Program-made: the position numbers and the translations under genes
NCBI GenBank assembly: GCA_964640185.1
Contig: CAZXGF010000014.1
Coordinates: forward strand, 3,573-67,572
Reading direction: 5' to 3'
Origin: an uncultured Verrucomicrobiota bacterium
GTDB taxonomy: Bacteria > Auribacterota > JABMQX01
DNA length: 64,000 bases
Shown: piece after piece, positions 42,418 to 58,459 of the stretch
Layout of the letters: each line of letters opens with the position of its first letter
Numbering within the stretch: the first letter of the stretch is position 1
The notes under the pieces: model-generated
The model's input: the letters and a program-made list of their open reading frames with translations, nothing else
Databases searched by the model: none
What the model was told of the DNA's origin: nothing

Positions 42418-45096
42418 ATGGAAAAGATATGGCTAAGCAGAAGAAGTTACGGGAAGTGGGGATTCGTTTTTGGCATCCCGGCAGCTATGGTTCTGATTGG
42501 GGCGACGGCTCTCGCGGCGGACCCTGCGTATTATGTAAGGAAAGACACCTGGCGGGAGACGATGCGTGCTTCCCGGGAAGCGCTGAGCCGACAGGAGCGC
42601 CGGGAAGGAATCAGAGTACCGCTGCCGAATCTGGGCGAGTCCGATTTTACCATCACGGCCTGGCTCAGGACAGAGGCTGACGGCGGAACCATCGTTTCTA
42701 AGTGCCCTCGCCTCGGCGAATGGAAGCGTTACGGCAAGGCCTTCTTTGTCCGGAATGGCAAACTTGGGTGTGACAGCGCCTACGTCGGGTTCATGGGATC
42801 GGACACAAACGTGAACGACGGGCAGTGGCATCACACTGCTTTGACGAAAAAGGGTGAAGAACTGGCCATTTCTGTGGACGGCAGATTGATCCGGAAGGGC
42901 GAGCTGCTGCTGGAGCCGGACGAGCCCGAGCATGTGATGAAAATCGGTTATTGCACACCTGATTTTCCCGAAGAGCAAAGCGGCTTTCAAGGCGAAATAG
43001 ATGAGGTGCGCATCTATAACAGAAAACTGTCACCGGACGAGATAAAAGCCACTGCTGAAAATTCTGACGACGTGACGGAAGGTCTGGCAGGCTTTTGGAA
43101 CTTCGAAGATGGCGCTTCAGACGTTTCCGGCAACAGAAATGATGGAAAGATACATAGCGCAACACGCTCCGAGGGAAAGTTCGGAAACGCTGTAAGATTT
43201 GACGGAAACAGCAGTGTTACGCTCCCGTCTTCTGCACCCGTGGCGGCTCGCCGTGAGGTATGGGAGCTCATCGCTCGTGACTTTACGGATGAAAAGCCGA
43301 AGAGAGAAATGGAACGGGAACAGGCTGACAACATCTGGAAAGCTGACTGGAATACCGGCGACGTGAAGGAGTTGGCAAGCCGTTATACTAAGGCTGCTCG
43401 TGATATTGGTGGTTTGCTCGCTAAGATAAGCAAGTTGGCGTCCGGGACCGAAAACTCCGCTGATCTCGAAAAAGTTGCGAGCCTCTATCACCTTTCCATA
43501 TTCAGCTATCAATCCAGTGCCAGCGTGCGGACGAAGATAAAGGCAATGCGGGATGGGGTCGCCTACCTGGAAGAATTACACAGCCGGGATGATGTGAAAT
43601 GGCAGAAGTACAAATCTGCTGTAGCGGCGCTCGCCAGCCCCGCGTTCCGCGGGGTGACGGCCAGCTTGGCTCACGGCGATGAATCCGCAATAAGGAGACT
43701 GGCAAGTATTGAAAGCGATGCCGAGGAACTTCGGTCGAAAATCCCGCTGACACTTCCTTCCGGGCCAAAAGGCCCGGGCCGTTTTGGCGCGTATTATACG
43801 AAGCTGAAATACAGTCTCGAATGGGACAGGCTTTGGCGGGTGGGCCCCGACGCTGATGTGGTAGTGCGGTTTGATGACGGGGGCCATCGGTTTGTCTTCT
43901 GGCGAGGCACCAGTTACATCCCCTGCTGGGTTACCGACGCCGGCGGATGGTACACAAACGAGTTCTTCGAGCGACGCGGCGGTGAGCGTAGCGGCACGAT
44001 GAGCATGGTGGAGCCGATGTCGGACAAGCAATGCCGATACTCTCGTGTGCGCATCATCGAAAGCAACGACGCCCGAGTGGTCGTTCATTGGCGTTACGCG
44101 CCGGTGGACCTAAAGTACCATCTCGCCTATATTGATAAGGAATCAGGTTGGGGCGACTGGGCGGATGAATATTACACGATCTACCCCGACGCCGTCGGAG
44201 TACGCAAGGCCAAATTATACACTTCGGCGACTGAAGACTGGATTGAATACCAGGAGAGTATTGTGGTCAATCAGCCGGGCACCCGACCGGAAGACAATTT
44301 GCACTATGCGGCTGTAACCCTCGCGAACATGAAAGGCGATAGCCACACCTACTCATGGGAGCACACATGGCCGGATAAGTTCGACAAACCGCCCGATGGC
44401 AATATCCAGGTGGTGAATCTTAAGGGCAAGACTCGGCCTTTCTCGATTGTGGACCCCGACGGGGCGTTCGCCAGGGCGTACCCAAAATATGGCGCCAAAA
44501 CGAAGTTTCACTGCTGGAGCCACTGGCCGGTATCGCAGGAAGAGTCGGATACCACGGTGGCCACTACTTTCGACAGGCCTTCTCACACCTCGCTATCCCA
44601 CATCAAGTGGAAACCGTATGCCGAGGAAGAGAAATCGAGAACGTGGGTAATGCTTCATGGTATGACCGACCGGGACGGCGGGGAACTGGCCGTCCTCGCG
44701 AAATCGTGGCTGCACGCGCCGCAGCTTGAGATGGTCAGCCGCGGTTTTACCTCTGCGGGCTATGACCTGACCCAACGTGCCTACGTATTGACGTGCAACA
44801 AAGCAGGCGAGCCCGCACCACTGGCTTTTCGAATCAATGCAAGCGAGGATTCGCCTTCTGTCAATCCCGCCTTTGTAATCAAACGCTGGGGTAAAATCGG
44901 CGCCGCCTTGAAACTGAACGGGAGGGCTATCAAGCGGAGTAAGGATTTCCGTTTTGGGCATCGGCCAAGCGACGACGGCTACGATCTTATCGTATGGATC
45001 AAGACCGAATCGAACAAGCCGCTCAGCGTTTCTCTTTCGCGGGTCGGCCGCTTGACGTGGCATCCCGCCGGAGGCGGGACCCGTGGAGAATCATAG
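42418..45096 (+). CDS. Secreted LamG-domain protein with a helical linker and an uncharacterised C-terminal domain of about 440 aa (paralog 1)
   Basis: Signal peptide; GEIDEVRIYNRKLS (LamG); C-terminal block shared with 45192..47270. Confidence 0.8.
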   Translation: MEKIWLSRRSYGKWGFVFGIPAAMVLIGATALAADPAYYVRKDTWRETMRASREALSRQERREGIRVPLPNLGESDFTITAWLRTEADGGTIVSKCPRLGEWKRYGKAFFVRNGKLGCDSAYVGFMGSDTNVNDGQWHHTALTKKGEELAISVDGRLIRKGELLLEPDEPEHVMKIGYCTPDFPEEQSGFQGEIDEVRIYNRKLSPDEIKATAENSDDVTEGLAGFWNFEDGASDVSGNRNDGKIHSATRSEGKFGNAVRFDGNSSVTLPSSAPVAARREVWELIARDFTDEKPKREMEREQADNIWKADWNTGDVKELASRYTKAARDIGGLLAKISKLASGTENSADLEKVASLYHLSIFSYQSSASVRTKIKAMRDGVAYLEELHSRDDVKWQKYKSAVAALASPAFRGVTASLAHGDESAIRRLASIESDAEELRSKIPLTLPSGPKGPGRFGAYYTKLKYSLEWDRLWRVGPDADVVVRFDDGGHRFVFWRGTSYIPCWVTDAGGWYTNEFFERRGGERSGTMSMVEPMSDKQCRYSRVRIIESNDARVVVHWRYAPVDLKYHLAYIDKESGWGDWADEYYTIYPDAVGVRKAKLYTSATEDWIEYQESIVVNQPGTRPEDNLHYAAVTLANMKGDSHTYSWEHTWPDKFDKPPDGNIQVVNLKGKTRPFSIVDPDGAFARAYPKYGAKTKFHCWSHWPVSQEESDTTVATTFDRPSHTSLSHIKWKPYAEEEKSRTWVMLHGMTDRDGGELAVLAKSWLHAPQLEMVSRGFTSAGYDLTQRAYVLTCNKAGEPAPLAFRINASEDSPSVNPAFVIKRWGKIGAALKLNGRAIKRSKDFRFGHRPSDDGYDLIVWIKTESNKPLSVSLSRVGRLTWHPAGGGTRGES

Positions 45097-45191
45097 GCAA
45101 GAGCCCATGCCGCCATAACTGTCAGGATAGCCTCTCGTAATGAAAATATGTAGTCTGAACACTGTAAGAAAGAGAACGCAAGGAATAGGAA

Positions 45192-47270
45192 ATGAGAAAA
45201 TCGTTTTTCATCACGAGCCTGTTATTGTTATCCATGCCCATACATGCTACCGATAACGGATTAGTCGCGTGGTGGAAGTTTGACGAAGAGCGGGGCAAAA
45301 TCGCACTCGATAGCGTCGCGCAAAGGGGAGATAGCGTTTTGGGAAACTTTTGGTATCTTCCTGGGGTTTCCGGGAGCAGTGCGAAATTCGACGGCTTCAC
45401 AACTCACATCGTTCGCACGGCGGCCGACGCTCCGCGGTTGCTCGACGCCTTCAGTGTGGAGGCTTGGGTCGCACCTCAGGCGTATCCATACAATTGGTGT
45501 GCGATTGTGAATCAAGAACGGGACCACCGGGCGGGCTACTTTTTCGGAATAGATGACTTCGGGCGAGTTGGCTTACATATAGCAGTTGACGGCAAATGGC
45601 GTGAATGTACGTCGAAGGAAACGATACCTTTTATGACGAAGTGGTCCCACATCGCAGGCACATTCAGCAAAGAGAAGGGGATTGCCGTTTACATCAACGG
45701 CGAATCGGCCGCCAGTCTGCCGCTCAAGGGTGAATTGATCTTTGCCGGCGATGTAAACCTTCAGATTGGCAGAAACCATAAGAAAACTAAAATGAATCCG
45801 AAAGCATTGGTTCGGCGGGATGTTAATTTCCCCACGTCCTATTCTTTTGACGGCATCATAGATGAACTGAAAATCTATAATCGCGCTCTGTCTGCCGAGG
45901 AGATAAGACAATCCTACCGGCACAGCGACCCGAAAACTACGCCTCCCCTGAAATGGCGAAAGCTGCCTGAGCTGCCAAAAGGCTCAGGTGATTTTGGCGC
46001 GATATACTGCAAACTAAAGTTTTATCCGGAGTGGGACGCTCTCTGGCGGGTTGGCGACCGCCCGGATATCGTCGTGAATTTCGACGGCAATCCCTACCAG
46101 ATGGTCTTCTGGCGCGGCACCAACTACAACATGAATTTGGTTGGAGAGAATGGCAAATGGGTTGCTGACCAGAGTGCCGAGGGCGGCGGCGGCAATGTTA
46201 CCGGCTGCTGCGAGCACATGTCTGATAAGCAGTGCCGTTACTCTCACGTGCGGCTTATCGAAAATCACGACGCCCGGGTGGTGGTGCATTGGCGTTATGC
46301 CCTGTGCGATGTGTTGTACCGAATCGCCAATTTGCGCGATGGCTGGGGAGCTTGGGCGGATGAGCATTATTACATCTACCCGGATGGCGTAGCCGTGCGA
46401 GCCTTTAACGTTTACGGTATGGGTGGAGGATGCAGCATTACCGAACCGGCGTCTCTCAATAATCTGGGCGAAAGGGCAGAGGACAACCTCCGAGTTGATG
46501 CGATCGTCACAGCCAACATGAAGGGCCAAATCCGCGCGCACAGGTGGGACCCGTGGCCGAGCAGCGGCAGGACGGCTGCCCCTTTCACCAACGCGCTGCC
46601 CGACGCCAACATCTGCGTGGTGAATTTCAGGTCTCGATCCAAGCCATTCTACATTTACGAGCCGGGCGCCCGGATCATTCCGTATGGCGGCGGCCTCAGG
46701 GAAGTGCGCGACTATTCAACATTCCCCACCTGGAATCATTGGCCAGTCTCGCAGGCTCCGTCAGATGGGCGGTACGCCTTCGCCACGGACAGAGTTTCCA
46801 GCTCGGCGGTAACGTCGCCTGAGCCACCTATGACAAGGAGGGAAGACGGTGTCATGGTGGGCAGGTTCATCATGGGGCTGACGAATCAACCCATCGAGAA
46901 GCTCGCTCCCATCGCTCGATCGTGGCTTCAGGCGCCGGAAGTCCGGGTCACAGGCACAGCTTTCAACAGCGAAGGATATAGCCGTGACCAACGCGCCTTT
47001 ATCCTGGCGAGCAATCATCCCGGCGGCGCCGAGACCCTTGAGCTGAACATTGCAGCTTCCGAAAAGTCCCCGTTGGTAAACCCCGCGTTTGTCATCAAAG
47101 GATGGGGGGAGGCAGGCGTCGCGCTCACGCTCGAAGGGCAACCGGTTCCGCCTGGCAAGAACTTCCGCTTCGGGCATCGCTACACTTTGGAAGGCGCCGA
47201 CCTGGTTGTATGGATCGAGGCGGAAGCGATGGCGCCGATACAAGTGGCATTCGCACCCGTAAAGGAATGA
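45192..47270 (+). CDS. Secreted LamG-domain protein with an uncharacterised C-terminal domain of about 440 aa (paralog 2)
   Basis: Signal peptide; GLVAWWKFDE...GIIDELKIYNRAL; shared EWD.LWRVG / FWRGT / MSDKQCRYS / VVVHWRYA / HWPV.Q / FRFGHR motifs. Confidence 0.8.
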   Translation: MRKSFFITSLLLLSMPIHATDNGLVAWWKFDEERGKIALDSVAQRGDSVLGNFWYLPGVSGSSAKFDGFTTHIVRTAADAPRLLDAFSVEAWVAPQAYPYNWCAIVNQERDHRAGYFFGIDDFGRVGLHIAVDGKWRECTSKETIPFMTKWSHIAGTFSKEKGIAVYINGESAASLPLKGELIFAGDVNLQIGRNHKKTKMNPKALVRRDVNFPTSYSFDGIIDELKIYNRALSAEEIRQSYRHSDPKTTPPLKWRKLPELPKGSGDFGAIYCKLKFYPEWDALWRVGDRPDIVVNFDGNPYQMVFWRGTNYNMNLVGENGKWVADQSAEGGGGNVTGCCEHMSDKQCRYSHVRLIENHDARVVVHWRYALCDVLYRIANLRDGWGAWADEHYYIYPDGVAVRAFNVYGMGGGCSITEPASLNNLGERAEDNLRVDAIVTANMKGQIRAHRWDPWPSSGRTAAPFTNALPDANICVVNFRSRSKPFYIYEPGARIIPYGGGLREVRDYSTFPTWNHWPVSQAPSDGRYAFATDRVSSSAVTSPEPPMTRREDGVMVGRFIMGLTNQPIEKLAPIARSWLQAPEVRVTGTAFNSEGYSRDQRAFILASNHPGGAETLELNIAASEKSPLVNPAFVIKGWGEAGVALTLEGQPVPPGKNFRFGHRYTLEGADLVVWIEAEAMAPIQVAFAPVKE

Positions 47271-47488: not shown

Positions 47489-48505
47489 ATGAAAAGAGCG
47501 CTTCCAATTATCGTTCTGGTAGGCCTGGCTGTGATAGTCATTGTTGTTGTCGCGATTCGCAAAAAGGAGGAGGCCGAGCCGATTGTCTGGTACGGGCCGA
47601 TGCCGCATCCATACGTGAGCGAAGTAAAAGCAGGCGTCGAGGCCTGTGGGAAGGATTTCGGCGCAAAGATTTTCACAATGGTCGGGCAGGAATGGACCCA
47701 GGACAACGAAAACATCAATGTCGAGGCGCTTTCGACAAAGGGGCACAAGGCGTTCAGCGTTTATCCGGGCGACGCCGCCGGCGCCAACGGACTTTTCGCC
47801 GCGCTGCGAAGGAAGGGGCAACTGGTCGTTGCTTACGGGGCGGAACCTGCGCTGCCGACGCCCGCGTCATTCACCGTCGCCACTGACATCAAGGGCGCGG
47901 CGATGACGGCCTGCGAAGAGCTCATCAAAATGATGGGCGAAAAAGGCAATATCCTCAACGTTCTGGAAACGGTCACCGACATCAACACCAAAAAGCGGGA
48001 CGAGGGTATCAACGAGGTCGTCGCCAAGTATCCCAACGTCAATATCGTCCAGACCATCGCCGACATGACGCAGGTCAGCGAGGCTACCAACAAAATCCAG
48101 AGCGCCCTGGCTGCGCGCGCCGACGAGATAGATGGGATCATCACAACCGGATACAACCCGACTATCGCGGCCGCCGCCATCCTTACCGAGTGGCACAAGA
48201 ATCCCAATCACAAGAGAATCCGCTTCATCGGCATAGACACGGGCGCGACGGTCCTTCAGGCGATACGCGACGGGTACATTGACGCGACAATCGCCCAGAA
48301 CCCGTTCGGCCACGGGTATATCTCATGCGCGATTCTGAAGATGATGCTGGATGGTTGGAAGCCGAAGAAGGACTACCAGTTCATCAACGCCGGAATCGTC
48401 AAGGTCACCAAGAAAAACGTTGGCACCTATCCCGACGAAGTCCGCAAGATCACCGACGGCATCGTGACCGACCTAAAAACGAAGTACCTCCTCCCACCCA
48501 AGTGA
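47489..48505 (+). CDS. Sugar ABC transporter substrate-binding protein (RbsB/Peripla_BP_4 type)
   Basis: N-terminal membrane anchor; IRFIGID...I.DG.IDATIAQNPFGHGY motif. Confidence 0.9.
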   Translation: MKRALPIIVLVGLAVIVIVVVAIRKKEEAEPIVWYGPMPHPYVSEVKAGVEACGKDFGAKIFTMVGQEWTQDNENINVEALSTKGHKAFSVYPGDAAGANGLFAALRRKGQLVVAYGAEPALPTPASFTVATDIKGAAMTACEELIKMMGEKGNILNVLETVTDINTKKRDEGINEVVAKYPNVNIVQTIADMTQVSEATNKIQSALAARADEIDGIITTGYNPTIAAAAILTEWHKNPNHKRIRFIGIDTGATVLQAIRDGYIDATIAQNPFGHGYISCAILKMMLDGWKPKKDYQFINAGIVKVTKKNVGTYPDEVRKITDGIVTDLKTKYLLPPK

Positions 48506-48553: not shown

Positions 48554-50068
48554 ATGGGCGTGCTCGAACTGCACTCGATAAGCAAGAGTTTCCCCGGCGT
48601 CAAGGCGCTGGACAACGTGTCTCTCCGGTTTGATGCGGGAGAGATCCACGCGCTCGTCGGCGAGAACGGCGCCGGGAAGAGCACCGCCATCAAGGTCATC
48701 ACCGGAATCCTCCAGCCCGATTCCGGGGAGGTCTTTTTCGAGGGCCGGCCGCTGCGCTGTCGCAGTTATCGAGACAGCCTGGAACGGGGTATCAATGTCG
48801 TTGACCAGGAGATCCAGGTTATCCCGGACAGCAGCATCGCCGAGAACATTATGCTTGACAAGATGATCACACGCGGCAAAACGGGGATCATCAACTGGAA
48901 GGCGATTAACCGGGTTGCGAAAAAGTACATGGACACGGTCGGCCTGAAGTTTCCGCCAACGACCGTGATGAGGCGCCTCAGCGCCGCCCATAAGCAGCTT
49001 GCCCAGATCGCCAAGGCCCTGGCCGCCAACGCCCGAGTGCTGCTTCTGGACGAGCCGACGAGTTCTCTGTCGGAACACGAGGCCCGGCACCTGTTTCAGA
49101 TTCTCCGTGCCCTGAGAACGTCCGGCGTTACCATCGTCTTCGTCTCCCATAAGTGCGAGGAGGTCTTTGCTCTCTGCGACAAGGTCAGCGTCCTGCGGGA
49201 TGGCCGGTGCGTCGGGACACGCCGCATCCCCGATTTGACCATCAACGAGCTTATCAAGATGATGATCGGCCGAACGTGCGAGGATGAGCACCTCGGCGAC
49301 CTGGACGTCAATCGCAGCCGGGAGATGCTGCGGGCCGAGCACATCGTCCGCTACGAAAAGGCCGCCGACGTGAGCTTCACGTTGTATGAAGGCGAGATTC
49401 TCGGCTTTTACGGACTGGTCGGGTCCGGCAGAACAGAGCTGGCGAGGATTCTCATCGGGGAGGACAAGCTGGATGGCGGCGGGATTTATGTGCGGGGTGA
49501 AAAGGCGCACATCCGAAGCGTCGCCGACAGCCTATATCGGTACCGCATCGGGTACGTCACGGAGAACCGTAAGGAGGAAGGCCTCCTTCTCAAGGCGCCA
49601 GTGCACACCAACATTACTATTACAGTCTGGCAAAACATCATCAACAAGCTCACCCGCCGCGTCAGCCCACAAAAGGAGCTGGTGATAGCCAACCGGATGG
49701 TCGCTGCTCTCGACATCCGCGCCACCGGGTTAGGCCAGAGGACTGAGAACCTCAGCGGCGGCAACCAGCAGAAGGTGAGCATCTCCAAGTGGCTCGCAGC
49801 CGACTGCGACATCCTTATCATTGATGAACCCACCGTCGGGGTGGACGTCGGCGCCAAGGAGCAAATTCACCGTCTGATCTGGGAGCTCGCCAAGAAACAC
49901 CGAAAATCCATCATCCTCATCTCATCCGATATGCCTGAGATTATCAAGGTCTCCAGCCGCATCCTCGTGTTCAAGAACCAACGCATCGTGGGTGAACTGA
50001 CGGGAATCGGCGACAAGAATAAGACATACGACGAAATCAGTACGGCGATCGGGCATTACCTCGCCTGA
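48554..50068 (+). CDS. Sugar ABC transporter ATP-binding protein (RbsA-like, two NBDs)
   Basis: GENGAGKST, LDEPT, LSGGNQQKV and IDEPTVGVDVGAK motifs. Confidence 0.95.
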   Translation: MGVLELHSISKSFPGVKALDNVSLRFDAGEIHALVGENGAGKSTAIKVITGILQPDSGEVFFEGRPLRCRSYRDSLERGINVVDQEIQVIPDSSIAENIMLDKMITRGKTGIINWKAINRVAKKYMDTVGLKFPPTTVMRRLSAAHKQLAQIAKALAANARVLLLDEPTSSLSEHEARHLFQILRALRTSGVTIVFVSHKCEEVFALCDKVSVLRDGRCVGTRRIPDLTINELIKMMIGRTCEDEHLGDLDVNRSREMLRAEHIVRYEKAADVSFTLYEGEILGFYGLVGSGRTELARILIGEDKLDGGGIYVRGEKAHIRSVADSLYRYRIGYVTENRKEEGLLLKAPVHTNITITVWQNIINKLTRRVSPQKELVIANRMVAALDIRATGLGQRTENLSGGNQQKVSISKWLAADCDILIIDEPTVGVDVGAKEQIHRLIWELAKKHRKSIILISSDMPEIIKVSSRILVFKNQRIVGELTGIGDKNKTYDEISTAIGHYLA

Positions 50069-50100: not shown

Positions 50101-51192
50101 ATGAAAAACAGCTCGACCGAGAACGAAACAACCGCTTCTCTTGAAAACAGCCAAAAGCCCGATTTGGGCAAGTATGGCGGGACCCCGTCCGCCCTCCATG
50201 AGCTGTTCAGCGGCAGGACCCTCGGGCTGGTTCTGTCCGCCGCAATCCTGTTTGCCATTCTGGCCGCGCGGTCTCGGAGCTTCCTGTCAACCTATACAAT
50301 GACTGTCATTTCCAGGCAGGCGGCCTTCTTTGCGCTCATTGCTCTATCGCAGGGGGTGTGCCTCGTAGTTGGAGGAATGAACCTTTCCGTGGGCGCCATC
50401 GGCAGCATCGCCACCGTGACCCTTGGACTTTGCATGGACAACTTCGGTCTGTCCTCTTGGGTAGCCGTGCCGATCGTTCTGGCTGTGGGCGCCGTCGCCG
50501 GCTTAATCAACGGCCAACTTATCACCCGCCTCCAGATCAACTCCTTCATCGTGACTCTTTCCATGATGTTCGTTTACATGGGGCTGCGATCGGGCATTTC
50601 CGGCGGTGCTCCTTACCGGGTGCCGGAATCGTTCACGTTCATTGGCCAGCAGGACCTGTTTGGCGTTCCATACGTTTTCCTCATCACGATAGTTGTTCTC
50701 GCCGCCGTCTCGTACATGTTCCGTGACACCGTCTTCGGCAGGAGACTGCTCGCCACGGGCGGCAACGCGGATGCAGCGAGGCTTTCGGGCATTGACACCG
50801 ACAGGATGATAGTGTGGGCTAACGTCTTATCCGGCGTGTTTGCTTCTCTCGCCGCCACCCTGTGGGCCTCCAAGCTGGGCTCCGCGGCCCCGGAAACCGG
50901 GGACGGGTGGCTCATCGTTTCCTTCGCTGTCGCCATCATCGGCGGCACCGGCCTCAGCGGCGGCGTCATTTCGGCCATTGGGATTTTTATGGGCGCCACA
51001 ATTTTCATGTTGATTAAGCACGGTCTGGTGGAAGTAAAGGCCAACGCTTACTATGCCAACTCCTTCCTGGGCGCGCTGATTCTCCTGGCAATCATCGTGG
51101 ACCGCGCCAGGGAGATTTACGGGAAGCGAATGCAGTCCGCTGCCCAGCGACACGCAGCTCAGCTTTCTGACAAGGCCCCAGGCGGCCAGTGA
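50101..51192 (+). CDS. Sugar ABC transporter permease (RbsC-like)
   Basis: GGMNLSVG, FIVTL, ATGGNADAARLSGI and AIIGGTGLSGG motifs. Confidence 0.93.
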   Translation: MKNSSTENETTASLENSQKPDLGKYGGTPSALHELFSGRTLGLVLSAAILFAILAARSRSFLSTYTMTVISRQAAFFALIALSQGVCLVVGGMNLSVGAIGSIATVTLGLCMDNFGLSSWVAVPIVLAVGAVAGLINGQLITRLQINSFIVTLSMMFVYMGLRSGISGGAPYRVPESFTFIGQQDLFGVPYVFLITIVVLAAVSYMFRDTVFGRRLLATGGNADAARLSGIDTDRMIVWANVLSGVFASLAATLWASKLGSAAPETGDGWLIVSFAVAIIGGTGLSGGVISAIGIFMGATIFMLIKHGLVEVKANAYYANSFLGALILLAIIVDRAREIYGKRMQSAAQRHAAQLSDKAPGGQ

Positions 51193-51401
51193 CGGAGCAC
51201 TAACGAAATCTCCCGCCGTCGTCTCACGGCGTCAGCCGCCCGGGAACAGTGGTGGGCTATCCGGAATCACCTCTCGGAAGCTCGCCCTAAACATCAACGT
51301 CTGCCCCTGGGGGCAATGCAATCGGAGAGGCGAGTTTCTTTGGCTTGAGCAGTCGGAGCATCGAAAGAGACCTGCGATGCAATCGGAGGAGCGCGAGGCA
51401 C

Positions 51402-52328
51402 ATGTCTGACGTTGTTTGTCTTGGCCAGTTCACGGCAGATGTCGTGGTAAGCTCAGTGAAATCTCTGCCGGAAAAAGGCAAAGCAATATTTGTCGAGAAT
51501 ATTAGGCTCCACAACGGCGGTTGTGCCTGCAACACGGCCATCGCCCTGGGCAAGCTCGGCGTCAAAACCGCCGTTATAGGCAAGGTGGGATGCGACGCGT
51601 TCGGCGACTTCCTTATTAAGGTAATGAAGGATGCGAACCTGGATACATCAGCCATGCTTCGGGACCCTTCCGTTGACACTTCCTCGACGGTGGTACTGGT
51701 GAGCCCAGACGGAGAGCGCTCATTCTTACACTACTACGGCGGGAACGCAAGAATGTCGGAGGACGAGGTCAATTACGACATCATCGAGACTGCAAAGATA
51801 CTCCATGTTGCCGCCGCCTTCCTCGTGCCGGGATTGGATGGAGTACCCATGGCCCGAGTTTTGGCAAGGGCAAGAAAGATGGGCGTGAAAACCATACTCG
51901 ACACCGCCTGGGACGCCGAGGGGCGATGGATGCAACTTGTGGAGCCCTGTCTCCATCACGTTGATATGTTTGTCCCCAGCCTTGATGAAGCGCAGATGTT
52001 AACCAAAAAGCAGAAACCATCTGAAATTGCCAAAGTGCTTCAGAGCTACGGTGTTACTACCGTCGTGATCAAGCTTGGCGCCGACGGCTGTTTCGCCCGA
52101 ACCTCTGACCACGAATTCTCTGTGCCGGCGTTCCGAGTTGATAGAATAGTGGACACCCTTGGCGCAGGTGATTGTTTCGTGGCAGGATTCATCGCGGCGT
52201 TGGTCAAGGGATGGGAACTGAAAAAGACTTGCACGTTTGCAAATGCCGTAGGAGCCGCGTGTGTATCTGCCAGAGGCGCCTCCGGCGTCAGACCCATGCA
52301 GGAAATAGCAAAGCTATATCGCGTATAG
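51402..52328 (+). CDS. PfkB-family carbohydrate kinase
   Basis: GGCACNTAIAL..LG, IGKVGCDAFG, VIKLGADG and DTLGAGDCFVAG motifs. Confidence 0.93.
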   Translation: MSDVVCLGQFTADVVVSSVKSLPEKGKAIFVENIRLHNGGCACNTAIALGKLGVKTAVIGKVGCDAFGDFLIKVMKDANLDTSAMLRDPSVDTSSTVVLVSPDGERSFLHYYGGNARMSEDEVNYDIIETAKILHVAAAFLVPGLDGVPMARVLARARKMGVKTILDTAWDAEGRWMQLVEPCLHHVDMFVPSLDEAQMLTKKQKPSEIAKVLQSYGVTTVVIKLGADGCFARTSDHEFSVPAFRVDRIVDTLGAGDCFVAGFIAALVKGWELKKTCTFANAVGAACVSARGASGVRPMQEIAKLYRV

Positions 52329-52563: not shown

Positions 52564-54981
52564 TCACAATTCTTTAATCTGTTTTAGCTTGCCGTTTAGC
52601 CTGTAAGCGTTTCCAGGCTTCGTTTCCAATTCGACTGCCGCACTGCCGTAACGAACTGTGCACTTATTACCAAGCTTTGACCGAATTGTTGCGGCAGTGA
52701 GATTGCCATTTTTCCATGTCATGTCCACTTCGAAGCCTCCGCGTGCGCACAGTCCCTTGACGCTTCCATTCGGCCACGCTCTGGGCAAAGCAGGCAGCAA
52801 ATGGATTTGGCCGGTAGGACTTTGCAGCAGCATTTCAGCAATACCAGCCACCGCCCCGAAAGTGCCATCAACTTGTGGGGTGCCGAAGCATTTGGAGAAC
52901 AGATTTATACATGTGTTGGCACGGACCTCATTCTTAAAAAGTCTGTAAGCTTTATCACCATCTTTCATGCGCGCCCAAAGGCACATCTGCCAGGTCATTC
53001 CAAAACCAGTTCCGCCCTCGCCCCTCATCTCCAGCGACTTAGCCACAGCCTTGACTAAGTCAGGCGTTCTGTACACAGATATTTCTCTCCCCGGATACAT
53101 ACCCCAAAGATGCGAGAAGTGACGATGATGGTCTTCAGGACTGTCGAGGTCTTCGAGCCATTCCTGGAGTTGCCCGTGCCGGCCGACCTGGTTCGGCGCC
53201 AACCGCTTGCTTGCTCCAATAACCTGTTCGCGGAAATCCTTATCAAGGCCAAGTATCTCAGATGCCCTGGCACAACTGTTGAACAAATATCTCAGTATTT
53301 GCATATCCATTGTGGGGCCCGCACACATGCTCGCCGTTTGTCCCTCGGCTGTTTTGGGCGCGTTTCGCGGGCAATTTTCTGGCGAAGACGAAGGGCACGT
53401 CACCAACCATTTATACTTTGGATGCGCCTGCAACGTTTCCAGGAAAAACTCAGCCGCACCCTTCATAGTGGGATATGCTTTTTTAAGGAACTGCTTGTCT
53501 TCTGTGAACAAGTAATGTTCCCACAGATGAGTGCACAACCACGCACCTCCGCACCTCCAGCTACCCCAATAAGGTCCGTTGATTGGAGCCGTAGCCCGCC
53601 ATAAATCTGTATTATGCCCCAGCACCCAGCCTTTCTTCGCGCCATAGGTCAGAGTCGCAGTGTGCGCTCCCTGCTTTGCCAATTCAGGTATCATCGCAAG
53701 CAGCGGCTCATGACAGTCAGAAAGATTTGCGACCTCCGCAGGCCAATAGTTCATTTCCAGATTGACATTAGTCGTGTACTTGCAGTCCCAAGACGGGTGC
53801 ATTGAACCGTTCCAGATACCTTGCAGATTAGCGGGTTGACAACCCGGCCGAGAGCTGCTTATCAATAGGTAACGGCCGAACTGAAACAATAACGCCGCAA
53901 GGTCCGGGTCGTCAGATTTGTCAAAAGCTTTCAGCCTTTCGTCTGTTGGAAGATTGCTCGCCGCGGTCCTATCCAAGTCTATCCTCACCCTATCAAAAAG
54001 CCGCTGATGCTCGGTGATATGGTCCTTGCGAAGTTGTTCGTATGATTTTCGCTGAATCCCAAACATACATTTTTCGACCAGAGCTTTCGGGTTTCCGCTA
54101 ATGTCCTTATAATTCTTAAAATTCGTTGCCGCTGCTAACACCAAAGTAACCGCATCGGCGCGAACAGAATTGAGCCGGTCCTGCTCATTGGAATTGTCAA
54201 TAAACATTCTGCCGCCTTCCGGCAACGCTTTCATCTGAGCATAGTATCTCAATCGCCCCTCAATTTCCCTGTATGTGCCGGTTTTTCCCCGCAGCACTAA
54301 TGTATCAGGCTCAATCGCACTGGTAACAAAACTCTCGTCGCTGGGCCATTTGACGTTTATGCGGCCCCCTAATTTGACGCTGAAAGAAACTTTGCCGGGC
54401 TTGTCCGCAGTGAGCCGGACGACTATCACCTGGTCAACCGGACTTGAGAAAATCTCACGGCTATATTTCACATCATCAACTTGATACACAATCCGGGCAA
54501 TTGCCGTCTCAAGGTCAAGCTCTCTGCGATAATTCTTCGCGCTAAAATGGCCGGGGAAATTAAACCAGAGGTCACCGAGTATCTGGTATTTCATCTGTTC
54601 ATGATCGTGCTTACGATTCATAGCCATCGCGGTCTTGCCGAACAGGTCCTGAGCCTCGGCAACCTTACCGGCAAAAATCAAACGCTGTATCTCAGGCATT
54701 GCCGCAGCGCCTTTCGGGTTGCTCGGCTCATACGGACTCCCTGTCCAGATAGTATCTTCATTCAGAATAATCTGCTCGTCGGCAATCTTGCCGAAGACCA
54801 ATGCTCCCAGGCGGCCGTTTCCGATTGGCAATGCCCCCGCCCATTTTGTAGCTGGTTGCTTGTACCACAGTGTCAAACCACCGTCGGCGGCGGCGACGTT
54901 CCCGCCGAGCGCAGTTAAAACCATAAGCCCCACCGAAAACTGTCCTATCGCACGAATTCCTCCCAATCTTAAGCTATCCAT
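52564..54981 (-). CDS. Alpha-L-fucosidase-family glycoside hydrolase (GH95), secreted
   Basis: LWYKQPA..W..ALPIGNGRLG, NEDTIWTG, FQFGRYLLISSSR, ANLQGIW, YTTNVNLEMNYW, HRHFSHL and PQVDGTFG motifs; RBS AGGAGG. Confidence 0.95.
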   Translation of the reverse strand: MDSLRLGGIRAIGQFSVGLMVLTALGGNVAAADGGLTLWYKQPATKWAGALPIGNGRLGALVFGKIADEQIILNEDTIWTGSPYEPSNPKGAAAMPEIQRLIFAGKVAEAQDLFGKTAMAMNRKHDHEQMKYQILGDLWFNFPGHFSAKNYRRELDLETAIARIVYQVDDVKYSREIFSSPVDQVIVVRLTADKPGKVSFSVKLGGRINVKWPSDESFVTSAIEPDTLVLRGKTGTYREIEGRLRYYAQMKALPEGGRMFIDNSNEQDRLNSVRADAVTLVLAAATNFKNYKDISGNPKALVEKCMFGIQRKSYEQLRKDHITEHQRLFDRVRIDLDRTAASNLPTDERLKAFDKSDDPDLAALLFQFGRYLLISSSRPGCQPANLQGIWNGSMHPSWDCKYTTNVNLEMNYWPAEVANLSDCHEPLLAMIPELAKQGAHTATLTYGAKKGWVLGHNTDLWRATAPINGPYWGSWRCGGAWLCTHLWEHYLFTEDKQFLKKAYPTMKGAAEFFLETLQAHPKYKWLVTCPSSSPENCPRNAPKTAEGQTASMCAGPTMDMQILRYLFNSCARASEILGLDKDFREQVIGASKRLAPNQVGRHGQLQEWLEDLDSPEDHHRHFSHLWGMYPGREISVYRTPDLVKAVAKSLEMRGEGGTGFGMTWQMCLWARMKDGDKAYRLFKNEVRANTCINLFSKCFGTPQVDGTFGAVAGIAEMLLQSPTGQIHLLPALPRAWPNGSVKGLCARGGFEVDMTWKNGNLTAATIRSKLGNKCTVRYGSAAVELETKPGNAYRLNGKLKQIKEL

Positions 54982-55164: not shown

Positions 55165-58100
55165 TCATTTCTCTCCCATGCATATCAAACGACCGTCTCC
55201 GGTCGAGATATAAAGCTGCCCGTCGGCGGCGGCCATGCCGTCCCATACGGGCATGGATTCAAGATTGTATTCCGCCACCCTCTTCCCGTCGGAGGCGGAC
55301 ACTGCCCATAGCAAAGCGCCTTTTCGCCCTTCAAGGGCGGCGGCCTGTTCCTCGAGCTTCTCGCGAATCCGGGCAGCATCCGGGTGGCGGAACGCATCCT
55401 TTTCATCCACCACGTTTGGCGGGCCGGCGACGAAGAGCGTTTTGCCTGCCAACACCATGGCGCGGACTTCAAGCGGAGGATTCTCACGCACCCACTTGTA
55501 GCTCACCGCGGAAAGGTCCGCCAATGAGAAGCCCTCTCGAACCTTCCAGTCAGCGGCTGAGACGTTCTTCTTAGTGCCGGCATTGATTCGGCGACGCGCG
55601 TTGACCACATGACGGATCGGTTCGGCTTTGATCTCCTTGTCGGCGGCAAAGAGCTGGTACTCCAGCACCGAGGATTGGCACAAGAACTGAGGCTTGCGCC
55701 CAAATCCATATACGGTTGACCCATCCACCGCGAGAAGCCGCCCGGCTGGAACGTAACGCGCGGCGCGGAACCAGCCGCCCCACCCCGAGGCGACACTCCT
55801 GCCAAACATCCAATAGGAGCGGTGAAACCATGAGCCGTCCAGAAAACCGGCGGGCGAGAACAGATGTATCCCCTCGCCGACTTGTTCGGTGACGTTCGTC
55901 GGGCCGATATTCTGGCGAGTGCCCTGGAGGTCAAACCGCTGGGACCGCATATAGAGATACCGACCGTCGCTTGATAGAACGTCCGGAAGCGCAACGGGCA
56001 TATTCAGGCCTCGCACTTTCGCCTGGAGATTCTCGCCGGTTTCCGGGTCGCGGTCGTCGAGAATGGTCTCGGATAATTTGCGTCCCGTTTTCGGGTCAAG
56101 CCGACACAGGCGTAACCCGCCGTCCACGAACATTGACCTGCCGGCGACGCAGCACGCGACGCCTCCCTCGACCAGCACGCTGCCGTGAACCGGCCAGACC
56201 GATTCCAATTGTTCAAAAGACATCAATCGCCGATCCTCCGGCGCCGCGCGGAAACGCCAAATCAGGTCGCCCTCTGAGGCGCCAAGACAATACACCCCAG
56301 CCGTCAGCGGACCCGAACAGCACTCGGCCCTGATATAGCGTCGGAGGCGAGTCAACCCGCCCACCGGCCACGTAGCTCCAGATCGTTTTTCCCGAACTCC
56401 CGTCGAGGGCATAGACCGTGTGGGTGTCCACGGACGCCACGTAAACCCTGTTTCCGGCAATCACCACAGCGCTGAGTTTGCCGCCCAGGTCCCTCTGCCA
56501 CGCTCGCTTCAAGTCGGCGGGAACAGACGTTTTCGTGAAGCCGCTGCGCGCCGGATCGTGGCGATAGGTCGGCCAATCTTCAGAATTGCGGATTGCGGAT
56601 TCCGGATTGCGGATTTGCCCGTAGGCTGGGCCGCGCTCGAGCCTGCCATCGTCCGAGGCGCCACGCTGATCCCGCGGGGTTGTGGACTTTGCAGAGAGGG
56701 CGCAGAATCCGTACAGCTTAGACTCAAGGTAGCAGGCGCAGCTATGCGGCGGCGCATAAACCAAACCGTTACAGGGCATGATGCCGTAAATGCACCCGCC
56801 TCGAACCCAATGATGAGTAATCCAGTGCTTCGAGCGAAAATCAATGAATTCGATGCCGGTTCTCGACGGGAGGAGGTAGTGGTCTGTTGCCTTAGCCCGA
56901 TAGCATCTATGATGGAACCAGTAGATTTTCACATCGGGCGGGAACTCGCTCTTGACCTCACCCGTGTGTGGGTCTCGTCCGGTGAATACACCCGAATCCC
57001 TACCGTTTGCGGTTGCCCCCGACCATACCAGTTCATCAACGACGAGAAGGTCCTCGGGAGATTGGTGTCCGGAACGGGGGTGTCTCGCGCTCCACAGCAT
57101 CTTGCCGGTTTTCGCCGACAACGCCACCATGGACCTTGTTCCCCCCGAAAACAGGACGACGTCCTTATACACAACCAGCGTCGGGCCGAAACAGGTTGGG
57201 ACAGGAGATCGTCTTGCGACCAGCTCTGAGCTCCACACTTCCCCGCCGGTTTTCCGATTCAGGCAAACGACCTTCTCGCCGTCGTGGAAGAAGACCTGTT
57301 TTTGGTCTGCCGCCAGCGTCAGCGGAGCCACCGCATACTGCTTTTTCCACAACGCATCGCCCGTGTCCGCTCGCACGGCCATGACCCACCGCTTTTGCTC
57401 ATCCCACGCCCAGCCATGGTTCGCGCGCGCCGTCTCGTCCCAGCAATACGTGTATATCGGCGTGTACCTTTTTCGCTTCGTCGGAGAATCGTTGACCAAC
57501 AGGAAAAGCACGCCTTCCGAAGCGAGCACCTCCTCGGTGGCACGGCTGCCCTGGTAAGTCCGGACGGTCTCTCCCGTCGCCGCATCCAGAGCTGTCAGCG
57601 GCGAGTCAAGCCCGAGAGTGACATAAACCCTGTCCCCCACGGCGACCAAGCGCCGAGGAAGCTGGGCGGGCCCGCTCTTCAAGGGCCAGCGATGGGTGTA
57701 CCACGAGGAAATTCGCCGTTTCCACAAGATGATGCCGCTGAATGCGTCCCGCGCAATCAGAGACCATTTTGGCGGCAACTGGATGGAAGCAGTGGGCCCT
57801 TCATCGAAAATGTAGAAGATCCGCCCGCCGGCCGATACCAGCGCGCTCATGCTGGCCATGTGGTCGTGATGCCGCGCCCATCTTGGGCTTCCAATCCATT
57901 GTAGGCGGCGGGGCGGGCCGATGACCGCGTCATGGGCCACCGCGTTGCCGCTTGCGTCATGGAGGTAATGTGTCCATTCGTCAATTTCGTCCGGGCGGGG
58001 CTTGACCGCCTTCGTCCAGCGGTCGCCCTGCTTGAGATACGCCACGCCATTGGGAGCCAGAACCCGAAGTACCTCCTCCATAGAGACATCGCCCAGCTCT

Positions 58101-58459
58101 TCTGATACGAGAAGGTTCACGAGGTTATCGTTGTATGGCAGGCAGGCCTTCGTCCAGTGCTCGACCGAAACCTTGCCATAGAGACCAAGCGACCGGATGT
58201 GTGCGCGCGCCTGTTCGATGTTGGCGGCATCCGCATCCAAGCCGTGAACGACATAGCTGTCGCTGACATGCAGCGCGGCCGTGAGCTTCCCGTCGCCACA
58301 ACCGACGTGGGCGATCAACCCGCCTGTGATGCCCGTCGCCTCCAGGACCTGCTTGGCATCTCGTTCCTGTGCCGCCTGCTGAGGCTTTGCCACAGCCAAA
58401 GTGCACGGCATTGCCATCAAACAGCATAGCGCTGCAATAAATCGGATTCTTCTCCTCAT
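55165..58459 (-). pseudogene. PQQ-binding-like beta-propeller protein with an N-terminal SAM-methyltransferase-like domain, split by a 1-nt frameshift (about 1097 aa if repaired)
   Basis: ORFs 56213..58459 and 55165..56460 join if one base is removed from the CCCC run at 56295-56298, restoring SADGWVYCL; HVGCGDG, EWTHYLHDASGNA and WP.YRHD..RSG motifs. Confidence 0.85.
56585..56612. repeat. Four tandem ATTGCGG-type heptamers within the PQQ-propeller gene
   Basis: ATTGCGG ATTGCGG ATTCCGG ATTGCGG; on the coding strand it reads IRNPESAIRN. Confidence 0.8.

Follow-up and report, generated by a model that had tools for sequence, protein, structure and literature searches.

Two adjacent paralogs with a long shared domain

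We analysed a 64,000-nucleotide stretch of DNA (the window) from the genome of an uncultured bacterium of the lineage Auribacterota (contig CAZXGF010000014.1), in which two adjacent + strand genes encode LamG-bearing proteins that share a long domain without a name in sequence databases. Paralog 1 (P0001, 892 amino acids (aa); 42418–45096) comprises a putative signal/anchor sequence, a LamG domain, what looks like the partial start of a second LamG with an apparently helical spacer, and the shared domain, modelled as a β-supersandwich. Paralog 2 (P0002, 692 aa; 45192–47270) comprises a putative signal peptide, a LamG domain and the same supersandwich domain. A preliminary description of this DNA had reported two neighbouring open reading frames (ORFs) with a long common domain, and BLASTP bears out both the coordinates and the relationship: residues 446–876 of P0001 (43753–45045) align with residues 258–690 of P0002 (45963–47261) with 190/444 identities (43%, E = 3e-107). 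All of the near-invariant blocks listed there can be read in this alignment (FGA.Y.KLK..EWD.LWRVG, FWRGT.Y, E.MSDKQCRYS.VR.IE..DARVVVHWRYA, WG.WADE.Y.IYPD, HWPVSQ, SWL.AP, NPAFVIK.WG and FRFGHR). The extent of the domain in paralog 1 follows from the BLASTP alignment and from family-wide conservation, and that in paralog 2 from a domain-only AlphaFold2 model, its Foldseek matches in the PDB and conservation.

The LamG (concanavalin-A-like jelly-roll) domain was found N-terminally in each protein, as described earlier: at aa 64–210 of paralog 1 (42607–43047; PF13385, E = 5.2e-17; PF02210, E = 8.9e-7) and at aa 84–238 of paralog 2 (45441–45905; PF13385, E = 6.1e-26), with PF13385 scores of 62.8 and 91.8 bits, respectively, against a Pfam gathering threshold of 27.6. 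Judged by eye, both N termini are signal-sequence-like; that of P0002 reads MRKSFFITSLLLLSMPIHA followed by TD, and that of P0001 has a hydrophobic stretch up to ALA, followed by AD. The closest relatives of P0001 are metagenome proteins of about 880 aa that are 76–81% identical to it, that is, P0001 has a subfamily of its own, and the two window proteins are thus old paralogs from two old subfamilies rather than the products of a recent duplication. The identical pair in identical order is present in a metagenome-assembled genome (MAG) of Sedimentisphaerales (locus L009). In P0001, a spacer of about 165 aa (aa 275–440; 43240–43737) separates LamG from the conserved domain; what may be the opening strands of another LamG precede this spacer, which appears helical from its sequence and gave no family match.

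An unclassified family in at least eight phyla

The domain had been proposed to lie outside the named families, which was borne out in Pfam, in NCBIfam, among PDB sequences and against aldose epimerases. P0001 and P0002 matched only LamG-type families in Pfam at E ≤ 1, NCBIfam returned nothing meaningful, and searches of PDB chain sequences with phmmer and with two family profiles gave only chance matches (E of 0.25 or above). No GH174 chain (GH, glycoside hydrolase) appeared in the phmmer or profile searches at E ≤ 10, though the library structures include the GH174 entry 8jd7; CAZy families being sequence-based, the domain thus lacks the sequence similarity that would place it in GH174. OpgG chains were likewise absent from the profile-search results and Pfam gave no MdoG match, so that membership of GH186 finds no support. 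A relation to aldose 1-epimerases was tried and rejected: PF01263 was not matched, and an HHalign comparison of 125 family representatives with 18 aldose epimerases returned a probability of 0.3%. The enzymes on which GH174 and GH187 were founded come from Wenyingzhuangia; among the 120 proteins closest to a Flagellimonas member of the family, none was from Wenyingzhuangia and none was named fucanase. A literature search found no paper on this domain family. We therefore treat the domain as an unclassified family that probably works like the β-sandwich glycosidases but belongs to none of those compared, GH187 not being among them.

The family is large and widely distributed. Searches with the P0002 domain retrieve over 3,500 clusters built at 90% identity (the best 78% identical to it), and the named matches are called only 'LamG domain-containing protein' or 'hypothetical', mostly from Planctomycetota/Sedimentisphaerales. 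An exhaustive HMMER scan of 1.84 billion representatives at 50% identity yielded 1,380 matches at E ≤ 1e-3, 857 at ≤ 1e-10 and 326 at ≤ 1e-30. With one genome per species, 274 stretches encode a relative, and the 75 loci that we kept come from Planctomycetota, Acidobacteriota (Terriglobia), Bacteroidota (Flagellimonas, Allomuricauda, Seonamhaeicola, Chitinophaga and Bacteroidales), Melioribacter, Verrucomicrobiota, Lentisphaerota, Caldisericaceae, Calditrichia and TA06. The relatives span at least eight bacterial phyla and belong to marine, sediment, digester and soil bacteria; a tblastn search of 72,556 plasmids gave no match to the family.

Conserved residues and domain architecture

The preliminary description had singled out conserved E, D, H and R residues as catalytic candidates, and an acidic, basic and His set is indeed conserved across the whole family. 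Among 125 representatives sharing less than 60% identity, the polar residues conserved in at least 90% are (P0002 numbering) D292, E330, E341, D345, E357, R362, R368, D390, Y396, D398, H516 and N630, and they fall in the motifs E.MSDK, ARVVVHWRY, WADE..IYPD and HWPV. Within the WADE motif, D390–E391 is near-invariant. The paralog 1 counterparts, placed by hand from the BLASTP alignment, are E518, E532, D536, E548, R553, R559, D583, Y589, D591 and H702. Orthologs from different phyla retain 40–50% identity over 440 aa, and this pattern of conservation is typical of active sites, not of binding modules.

The domain is fused in 33 long multidomain relatives to binding or display modules only (LamG, Calx-beta, PKD-like, Ig-like, fn3, F5/8-C, a type IX secretion system (T9SS) tail and dockerin), which leaves it as the sole candidate for a catalytic core in these proteins. 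Versions of 430–550 aa without a Pfam-detectable partner also occur. By eye, family members have Sec-type N termini and the neighbouring sulfatases Tat signals.

Predicted fold

AlphaFold2 confidently modelled the whole of P0002 (pLDDT 86.1, pTM 0.84), with LamG as a jelly-roll. Foldseek matches to this model covered LamG only (clostridial neurotoxin Hc N-domains and a GH43 accessory domain, TMq of about 0.25) and were uninformative on the remaining domain, which was therefore refolded alone (pLDDT 86.4, pTM 0.91). The resulting model has an N-terminal β-supersandwich, a middle part of lower confidence, one helix and a very confident C-terminal β-sandwich; we read it as a predicted galactose-mutarotase-like β-supersandwich followed by a β-sandwich. 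In the PDB, the domain alone matched LacZ domain 5 (6sd0, E = 5.6e-8), OpgG of GH186 as the second-best match (8ip2, E = 1.8e-6, TMq 0.34), the GH174 endo-1,3-fucanase 8jd7 (E = 3.6e-4, probability 0.98, with a weak superposition of TMq 0.31, TMt 0.28 and a root-mean-square deviation (rmsd) of 19 Å), the galactose mutarotases 3imh, 1l7k and 1ns2 (TMt 0.39–0.43), xanthan lyase (6f2p) and YidC P1. TM-scores across all of these fold matches were only 0.28–0.43. The predicted fold thus has a precedent in the mutarotase-like supersandwich.

Some relatives of about 910 aa carry an extra copy of the N-terminal lobe (F.AYYT..., VRIIE...VHWRY, EYF.I.PDG) ahead of LamG (P0123; L038, 13502–16258 on the − strand; L012, 6477–9206; L014, 3693–9185), and the supersandwich lobe can thus be a separate unit.

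Gene neighbourhoods of the family

To characterize the genomic context, ORFs were called in 82 loci and the window, clustered by BLAST and annotated by Pfam searches with cluster representatives; pre-computed independent gene calls agree with the picture obtained. The family itself accounts for 142 proteins in the 82 loci, and as many as six members stand in tandem (L014). Among glycan-degrading neighbours, GH29 α-L-fucosidases occur in 18 loci (24 genes), sulfatases in 12 (20 genes), GH141-like β-helix proteins in 11, BNR/sialidase-like proteins in seven and GH95 in six. Transport is represented by SSF transporters (21 loci), TonB-dependent receptors (15) and SusD (five), and mutarotation by RhaM (10) and FucU (five). 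Genes for Zn-dependent dehydrogenases (Zn-ADH) are present in 20 loci, aldo-keto reductases in 10, two clusters of PfkB kinases in seven and five, Amidohydro_2, URO-D-like and SDR proteins in seven each, and Fe-ADH in six. Further neighbours are GH127, GH2, a BT1020-like propeller, a GH78-like rhamnosidase and SusC/D.

Recurrent modules are recognizable within this set (FAM denoting a family gene). Planctomycetota have FAM(×2–6)-SSF-FucU-UROD-ZnADH-Sulf-Sulf-PfkB, Acidobacteriota GH141-rhaM-FAM with AKR/Amidohydro_2/SSF/ZnADH, and Flavobacteriaceae SusC/D-GH95-...-FAM-AKR (AKR, aldo-keto reductase). In the window and in a TA06 MAG (L021, 321–12553), a family member is followed by the same CUT2 ATP-binding cassette (ABC) transporter; in the latter, the ABC genes precede an AraD-like class II aldolase/epimerase, an FGGY kinase and an isomerase, which is the classical isomerase–kinase–aldolase route. 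The neighbours make up a set for the release, uptake, mutarotation and catabolism of L-fucose/6-deoxyhexose, in loci for complex fucosylated glycans that in marine and anoxic settings are additionally sulfated. The association of homologs with carbohydrate loci is strong, and specifically concerns L-fucose and complex fucosylated or sulfated glycans. Because family genes stand immediately upstream of monosaccharide transporters or mutarotases (FAM-FAM-FAM-SSF-FucU, GH141-rhaM-FAM, FAM-ABC), gene context favours, at low confidence, an exo mode in which monosaccharides would be released.

One GH29 α-L-fucosidase is fused to a RhaM-type mutarotase domain (L006, 3124–4980), which suggests that the RhaM-like proteins of these loci act on L-fucose and not on rhamnose. 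URO-D-like genes adjoin the family in seven loci (among them L004, L017, L023, L053 and L079), and in the relative G001 (L102, contig C72, 9290–14834) URO-D-like and MTTB-like methyltransferase genes come after an orthologous sugar-binding protein and permease; an O-methylated sugar may thus undergo corrinoid-dependent demethylation.

Transporter, kinase and GH95 of the window

Pfam and NCBIfam confirmed that the paralogs lie upstream of a sugar ABC transporter and a PfkB kinase, with a GH95 gene nearby. On the + strand, the cluster continues with a CUT2-type periplasmic sugar-binding protein (47489–48505; PF13407 (Peripla_BP_4), E = 1.8e-39), a two-domain AraG/RbsA/XylG-like sugar ABC ATPase (48554–50068; PF00005 twice), a sugar ABC permease (50101–51192; PF02653 (BPD_transp_2); AraH/RbsC-like, below cut-offs) and a PfkB-family sugar kinase (51345–52328; PF00294, E = 2.5e-65). 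No convincing terminator-like site was found on the + strand between 42418 and 52328, and these genes could thus form one putative transcription unit. Convergent with the cluster is a GH95 gene (α-L-fucosidase/α-L-galactosidase family; 52564–54981, − strand; PF22124, E = 2.2e-168, with PF14498 and PF21307). Directly beyond GH95, two further − strand genes (56213–58459 and 55165–56460) encode a methyltransferase domain fused to PQQ/BamB-like β-propeller repeats and a second propeller protein.

The binding protein falls below every NCBIfam cut-off (best RbsB, 39.7 bits), and its PDB relatives are generic ribose/monosaccharide-binding proteins at E = 1e-15 or weaker; the ATPase scores 465 bits with AraG and 440 bits with RbsA, each below its cut-off. 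The kinase, below the IolC and ribokinase cut-offs, is closest in the PDB to Escherichia coli YdjH (3h49, E = 1.2e-49), followed by a fructokinase (1.4e-34). A reading of the system as a ribose system (RbsB/RbsA/ribokinase-like) was rejected, given scores far below the NCBIfam cut-offs and a kinase closest to YdjH. The neighbours of the orthologous transporter in G001 (GH28, GH36, GFO/IDH/MocA, URO-D and MTTB) pointed to no particular transported sugar. YdjH phosphorylates unusual 2-keto sugars, and genes for Zn-dependent dehydrogenases and an aldo-keto reductase belong to the same cluster. Near family members of other phyla, Zn-ADH, AKR and PfkB are repeatedly found side by side, in a combination that resembles the ydj cluster of E. 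coli; this set may point to an oxidoreductive, isomerase-independent route for a 6-deoxyhexose.

Distribution in the lineage of the window

The genome from which the window derives (5.3 Mb) has just these two copies of the family, alongside seven GH95-like matches (one of them the window GH95) and six GH29 matches. Within its phylum, the family was found in five of 61 sampled genomes: the window genome and four small genomes of one other genus. With so few carriers, and with GH29 missing from those four, co-occurrence of the family with GH29 within the phylum is uninformative. Three relatives from the same taxonomic family (G001, G030 and G046) are without the domain family, yet have GH29; they keep the gene for a tetratricopeptide repeat (TPR) protein upstream (58–65% identity), not GH95, and their orthologs of the binding protein (55–57%) lie elsewhere in the genome. 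The sporadic distribution in the phylum, the best homologs of both paralogs being labelled Sedimentisphaerales or Planctomycetota, and a GC content at 42–46 kb (0.535–0.547) slightly lower than that nearby (~0.57–0.59) together suggest that the pair was acquired horizontally.

Function of the domain and alternative explanations

We consider it about an even chance (roughly 0.5) that the 440-aa domain serves as catalytic module in an unclassified secreted or periplasmic enzyme that degrades fucose-bearing glycans. As a working class, a secreted carbohydrate-active enzyme (CAZyme) catalytic module accommodates the signal peptide (judged by eye), the fusions to carbohydrate-binding modules (CBMs) and display modules, the glycan loci and the conserved acid/base residues, and the carbohydrate-active interpretation given in the preliminary description is partly supported. 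The enzyme would most likely be a glycoside hydrolase, built on the predicted mutarotase-like supersandwich backed by its C-terminal β-sandwich and directed at complex, often sulfated glycans bearing L-fucose, with the N-terminal LamG serving as a carbohydrate-binding or positioning module; the window paralogs would probably have different specificities for linkage or decoration. What they release would be a 6-deoxyhexose-type monosaccharide or small sugar, which the neighbouring CUT2 ABC transporter would import and the YdjH-like PfkB kinase would phosphorylate, directly or after isomerization, while the product of the convergent GH95 gene would take off other fucosyl or galactosyl caps.

Several observations weigh against this proposal. 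The fold matches are weak and are common to non-catalytic supersandwich domains (LacZ D5, YidC P1 and lyase C-domains). The window transporter and kinase are generic, with no sugar assigned by NCBIfam or the PDB. Context is heterogeneous, some loci being without carbohydrate genes (L003, L016, L070 and L005, in which the family gene comes after a type II secretion operon). In genus g11 the family is present without a GH29 match at E = 1e-20, and a literature search found no biochemical, genetic or expression datum for any family member. A narrower proposition, that the domain founds a new GH family unrelated in sequence to all CAZy families and built on a mutarotase-like catalytic supersandwich, is held more tentatively, at somewhat less than even odds.

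An unlikely alternative is that the proteins are non-catalytic and capture fucosylated glycans at the surface or in the periplasm, passing them to glycosidases or transporters in the manner of SusE/F of Bacteroidota. The all-β architecture is of the kind seen in binding-type folds, the nearest fold matches include the non-catalytic domains named above, tandem multi-copy arrays adjoin transporters, and the catalytic residues are candidates only. Yet about a dozen charged or His residues are very highly conserved across phyla, which is unusual for glycan-binding proteins, as these tend to be poorly conserved; like a catalytic module, the domain itself bears CBM-like modules, dockerin and T9SS tails; and phyla that lack Sus-like systems also have the family.

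We regard as more doubtful still a non-hydrolytic enzyme on the same scaffold, that is, a polysaccharide lyase, a periplasmic 6-deoxyhexose mutarotase or epimerase, or a remover of methyl-ether, acetyl or sulfate groups. Such an enzyme would share its fold with the aldose 1-epimerases (3imh, 1l7k and 1ns2), and the conserved His, Glu and Asp could serve in acid/base epimerization or β-elimination; methyltransferase genes of the URO-D and MTTB types are repeatedly found close to the family and to the orthologous transporter, and FucU and RhaM mutarotases are neighbours. The same loci, however, already encode cytoplasmic FucU or RhaM, the HHalign and PF01263 results speak against kinship with aldose 1-epimerases, and a mutarotase would hardly need LamG, PA14, dockerin and T9SS modules or up to six paralogs.

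The least probable explanation is that the family is a divergent member of GH187 or GH174, hence not new, acting as an endo-α-1,3-L-fucanase on sulfated fucans: the Foldseek match to 8jd7, the fucose- and sulfatase-rich context, the β-sheet-dominated structures reported for both families (PMC12534559) and the size of Fun187A (~101 kDa, similar to paralog 1; PMC11943901) are in its favour, but the two profiles find no GH174 chain among PDB sequences even at E = 10, Wenyingzhuangia and fucanase-named proteins are missing from the 120 closest relatives of the Flagellimonas member, many members occupy soil Acidobacteriota loci without sulfatases, and the adjacent monosaccharide transporters and mutarotases suggest an exo-acting product. 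Detection of GH174 and GH187 by dbCAN v3 was not reliable (PMC11685898), and annotation pipelines would therefore miss them.

Significance and comparison with known systems

Few polysaccharides are as recalcitrant as the fucose-rich glycans, which include algal fucoidans, animal sulfated fucans, plant rhamnogalacturonan II (RG-II) and microbial exopolymers, and knowledge of the enzymes that open them is still partial (PMC11685898, PMC12534559). With more than 1,000 sequence clusters and a place inside fucose loci, the present family, which current annotation hides under 'LamG domain-containing protein', is an obvious candidate for one such missing activity. If the domain does found a new GH family, it would provide a further supersandwich catalytic scaffold after GH186 and GH174, fill an unassigned step in the breakdown of fucosylated and sulfated glycans (fucoidans, RG-II-like pectins and microbial exopolymers), and add an enzyme that is absent from present models of recalcitrant fucan turnover to Planctomycetota, Acidobacteriota, Bacteroidota, Verrucomicrobiota and other phyla. 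Once its activity is assigned, CAZymes could be better annotated in PVC-group and acidobacterial genomes, and carbon-cycle models and the toolbox for producing defined fuco-oligosaccharides would benefit. Two strains in culture, Flagellimonas algicola AsT0115 and Flagellimonas sp. CMM7, carry the family, which makes the question directly testable.

By analogy, the precedent of GH186 and GH174 indicates that β-sandwich scaffolds can be glycosidase catalytic domains. GH174 and GH187 have been described as β-sheet-dominated glycosidases (PMC12534559), and the key residues of Fun174A-type GH174 enzymes are D119, E120 and E218, which include a D–E dyad (PMC11943901). Like GH174 (Fun174A, 8jd7), the present proteins are secreted, belong to fucan loci and have a predicted fold of the 'unusual', β-sheet-dominated kind; their near-invariant D390–E391 is a possible counterpart of the GH174 dyad. 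The two differ in that profile hidden Markov models detect no similarity at E = 10 and the structures superpose at TM-scores of 0.28–0.31 and 19 Å rmsd, and in that the present family has a much wider distribution (soil Acidobacteriota and anaerobic Planctomycetota), often without sulfatases in the locus.

GH186 OpgG/OpgD (8ip2) offers a catalytic β-supersandwich followed by a C-terminal Ig-like β-sandwich in periplasmic proteins of similar size (about 480 aa), in the context of osmoregulated periplasmic glucan synthesis, in contrast to the fucose catabolic loci of the present family. Aldose 1-epimerases and the non-catalytic mutarotase-like domains of GH2 (LacZ domain 5), polysaccharide lyase family 8 (PL8) and YidC P1 share the general β-supersandwich topology; unlike this group, the present proteins are exported, modular and multi-copy, and their motifs E.MSDK, ARVVVHWRY, WADE..IYPD and HWPV were not seen in the 18 aligned aldose epimerases. 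With GH29, GH95 and GH141, finally, the family has in common its loci, a secreted location and multiplicity within loci, but no sequence relation; the TIM barrel of GH29, the (α/α)6 toroid of GH95 and the β-helix of GH141 are folds unrelated to that of the present domain.

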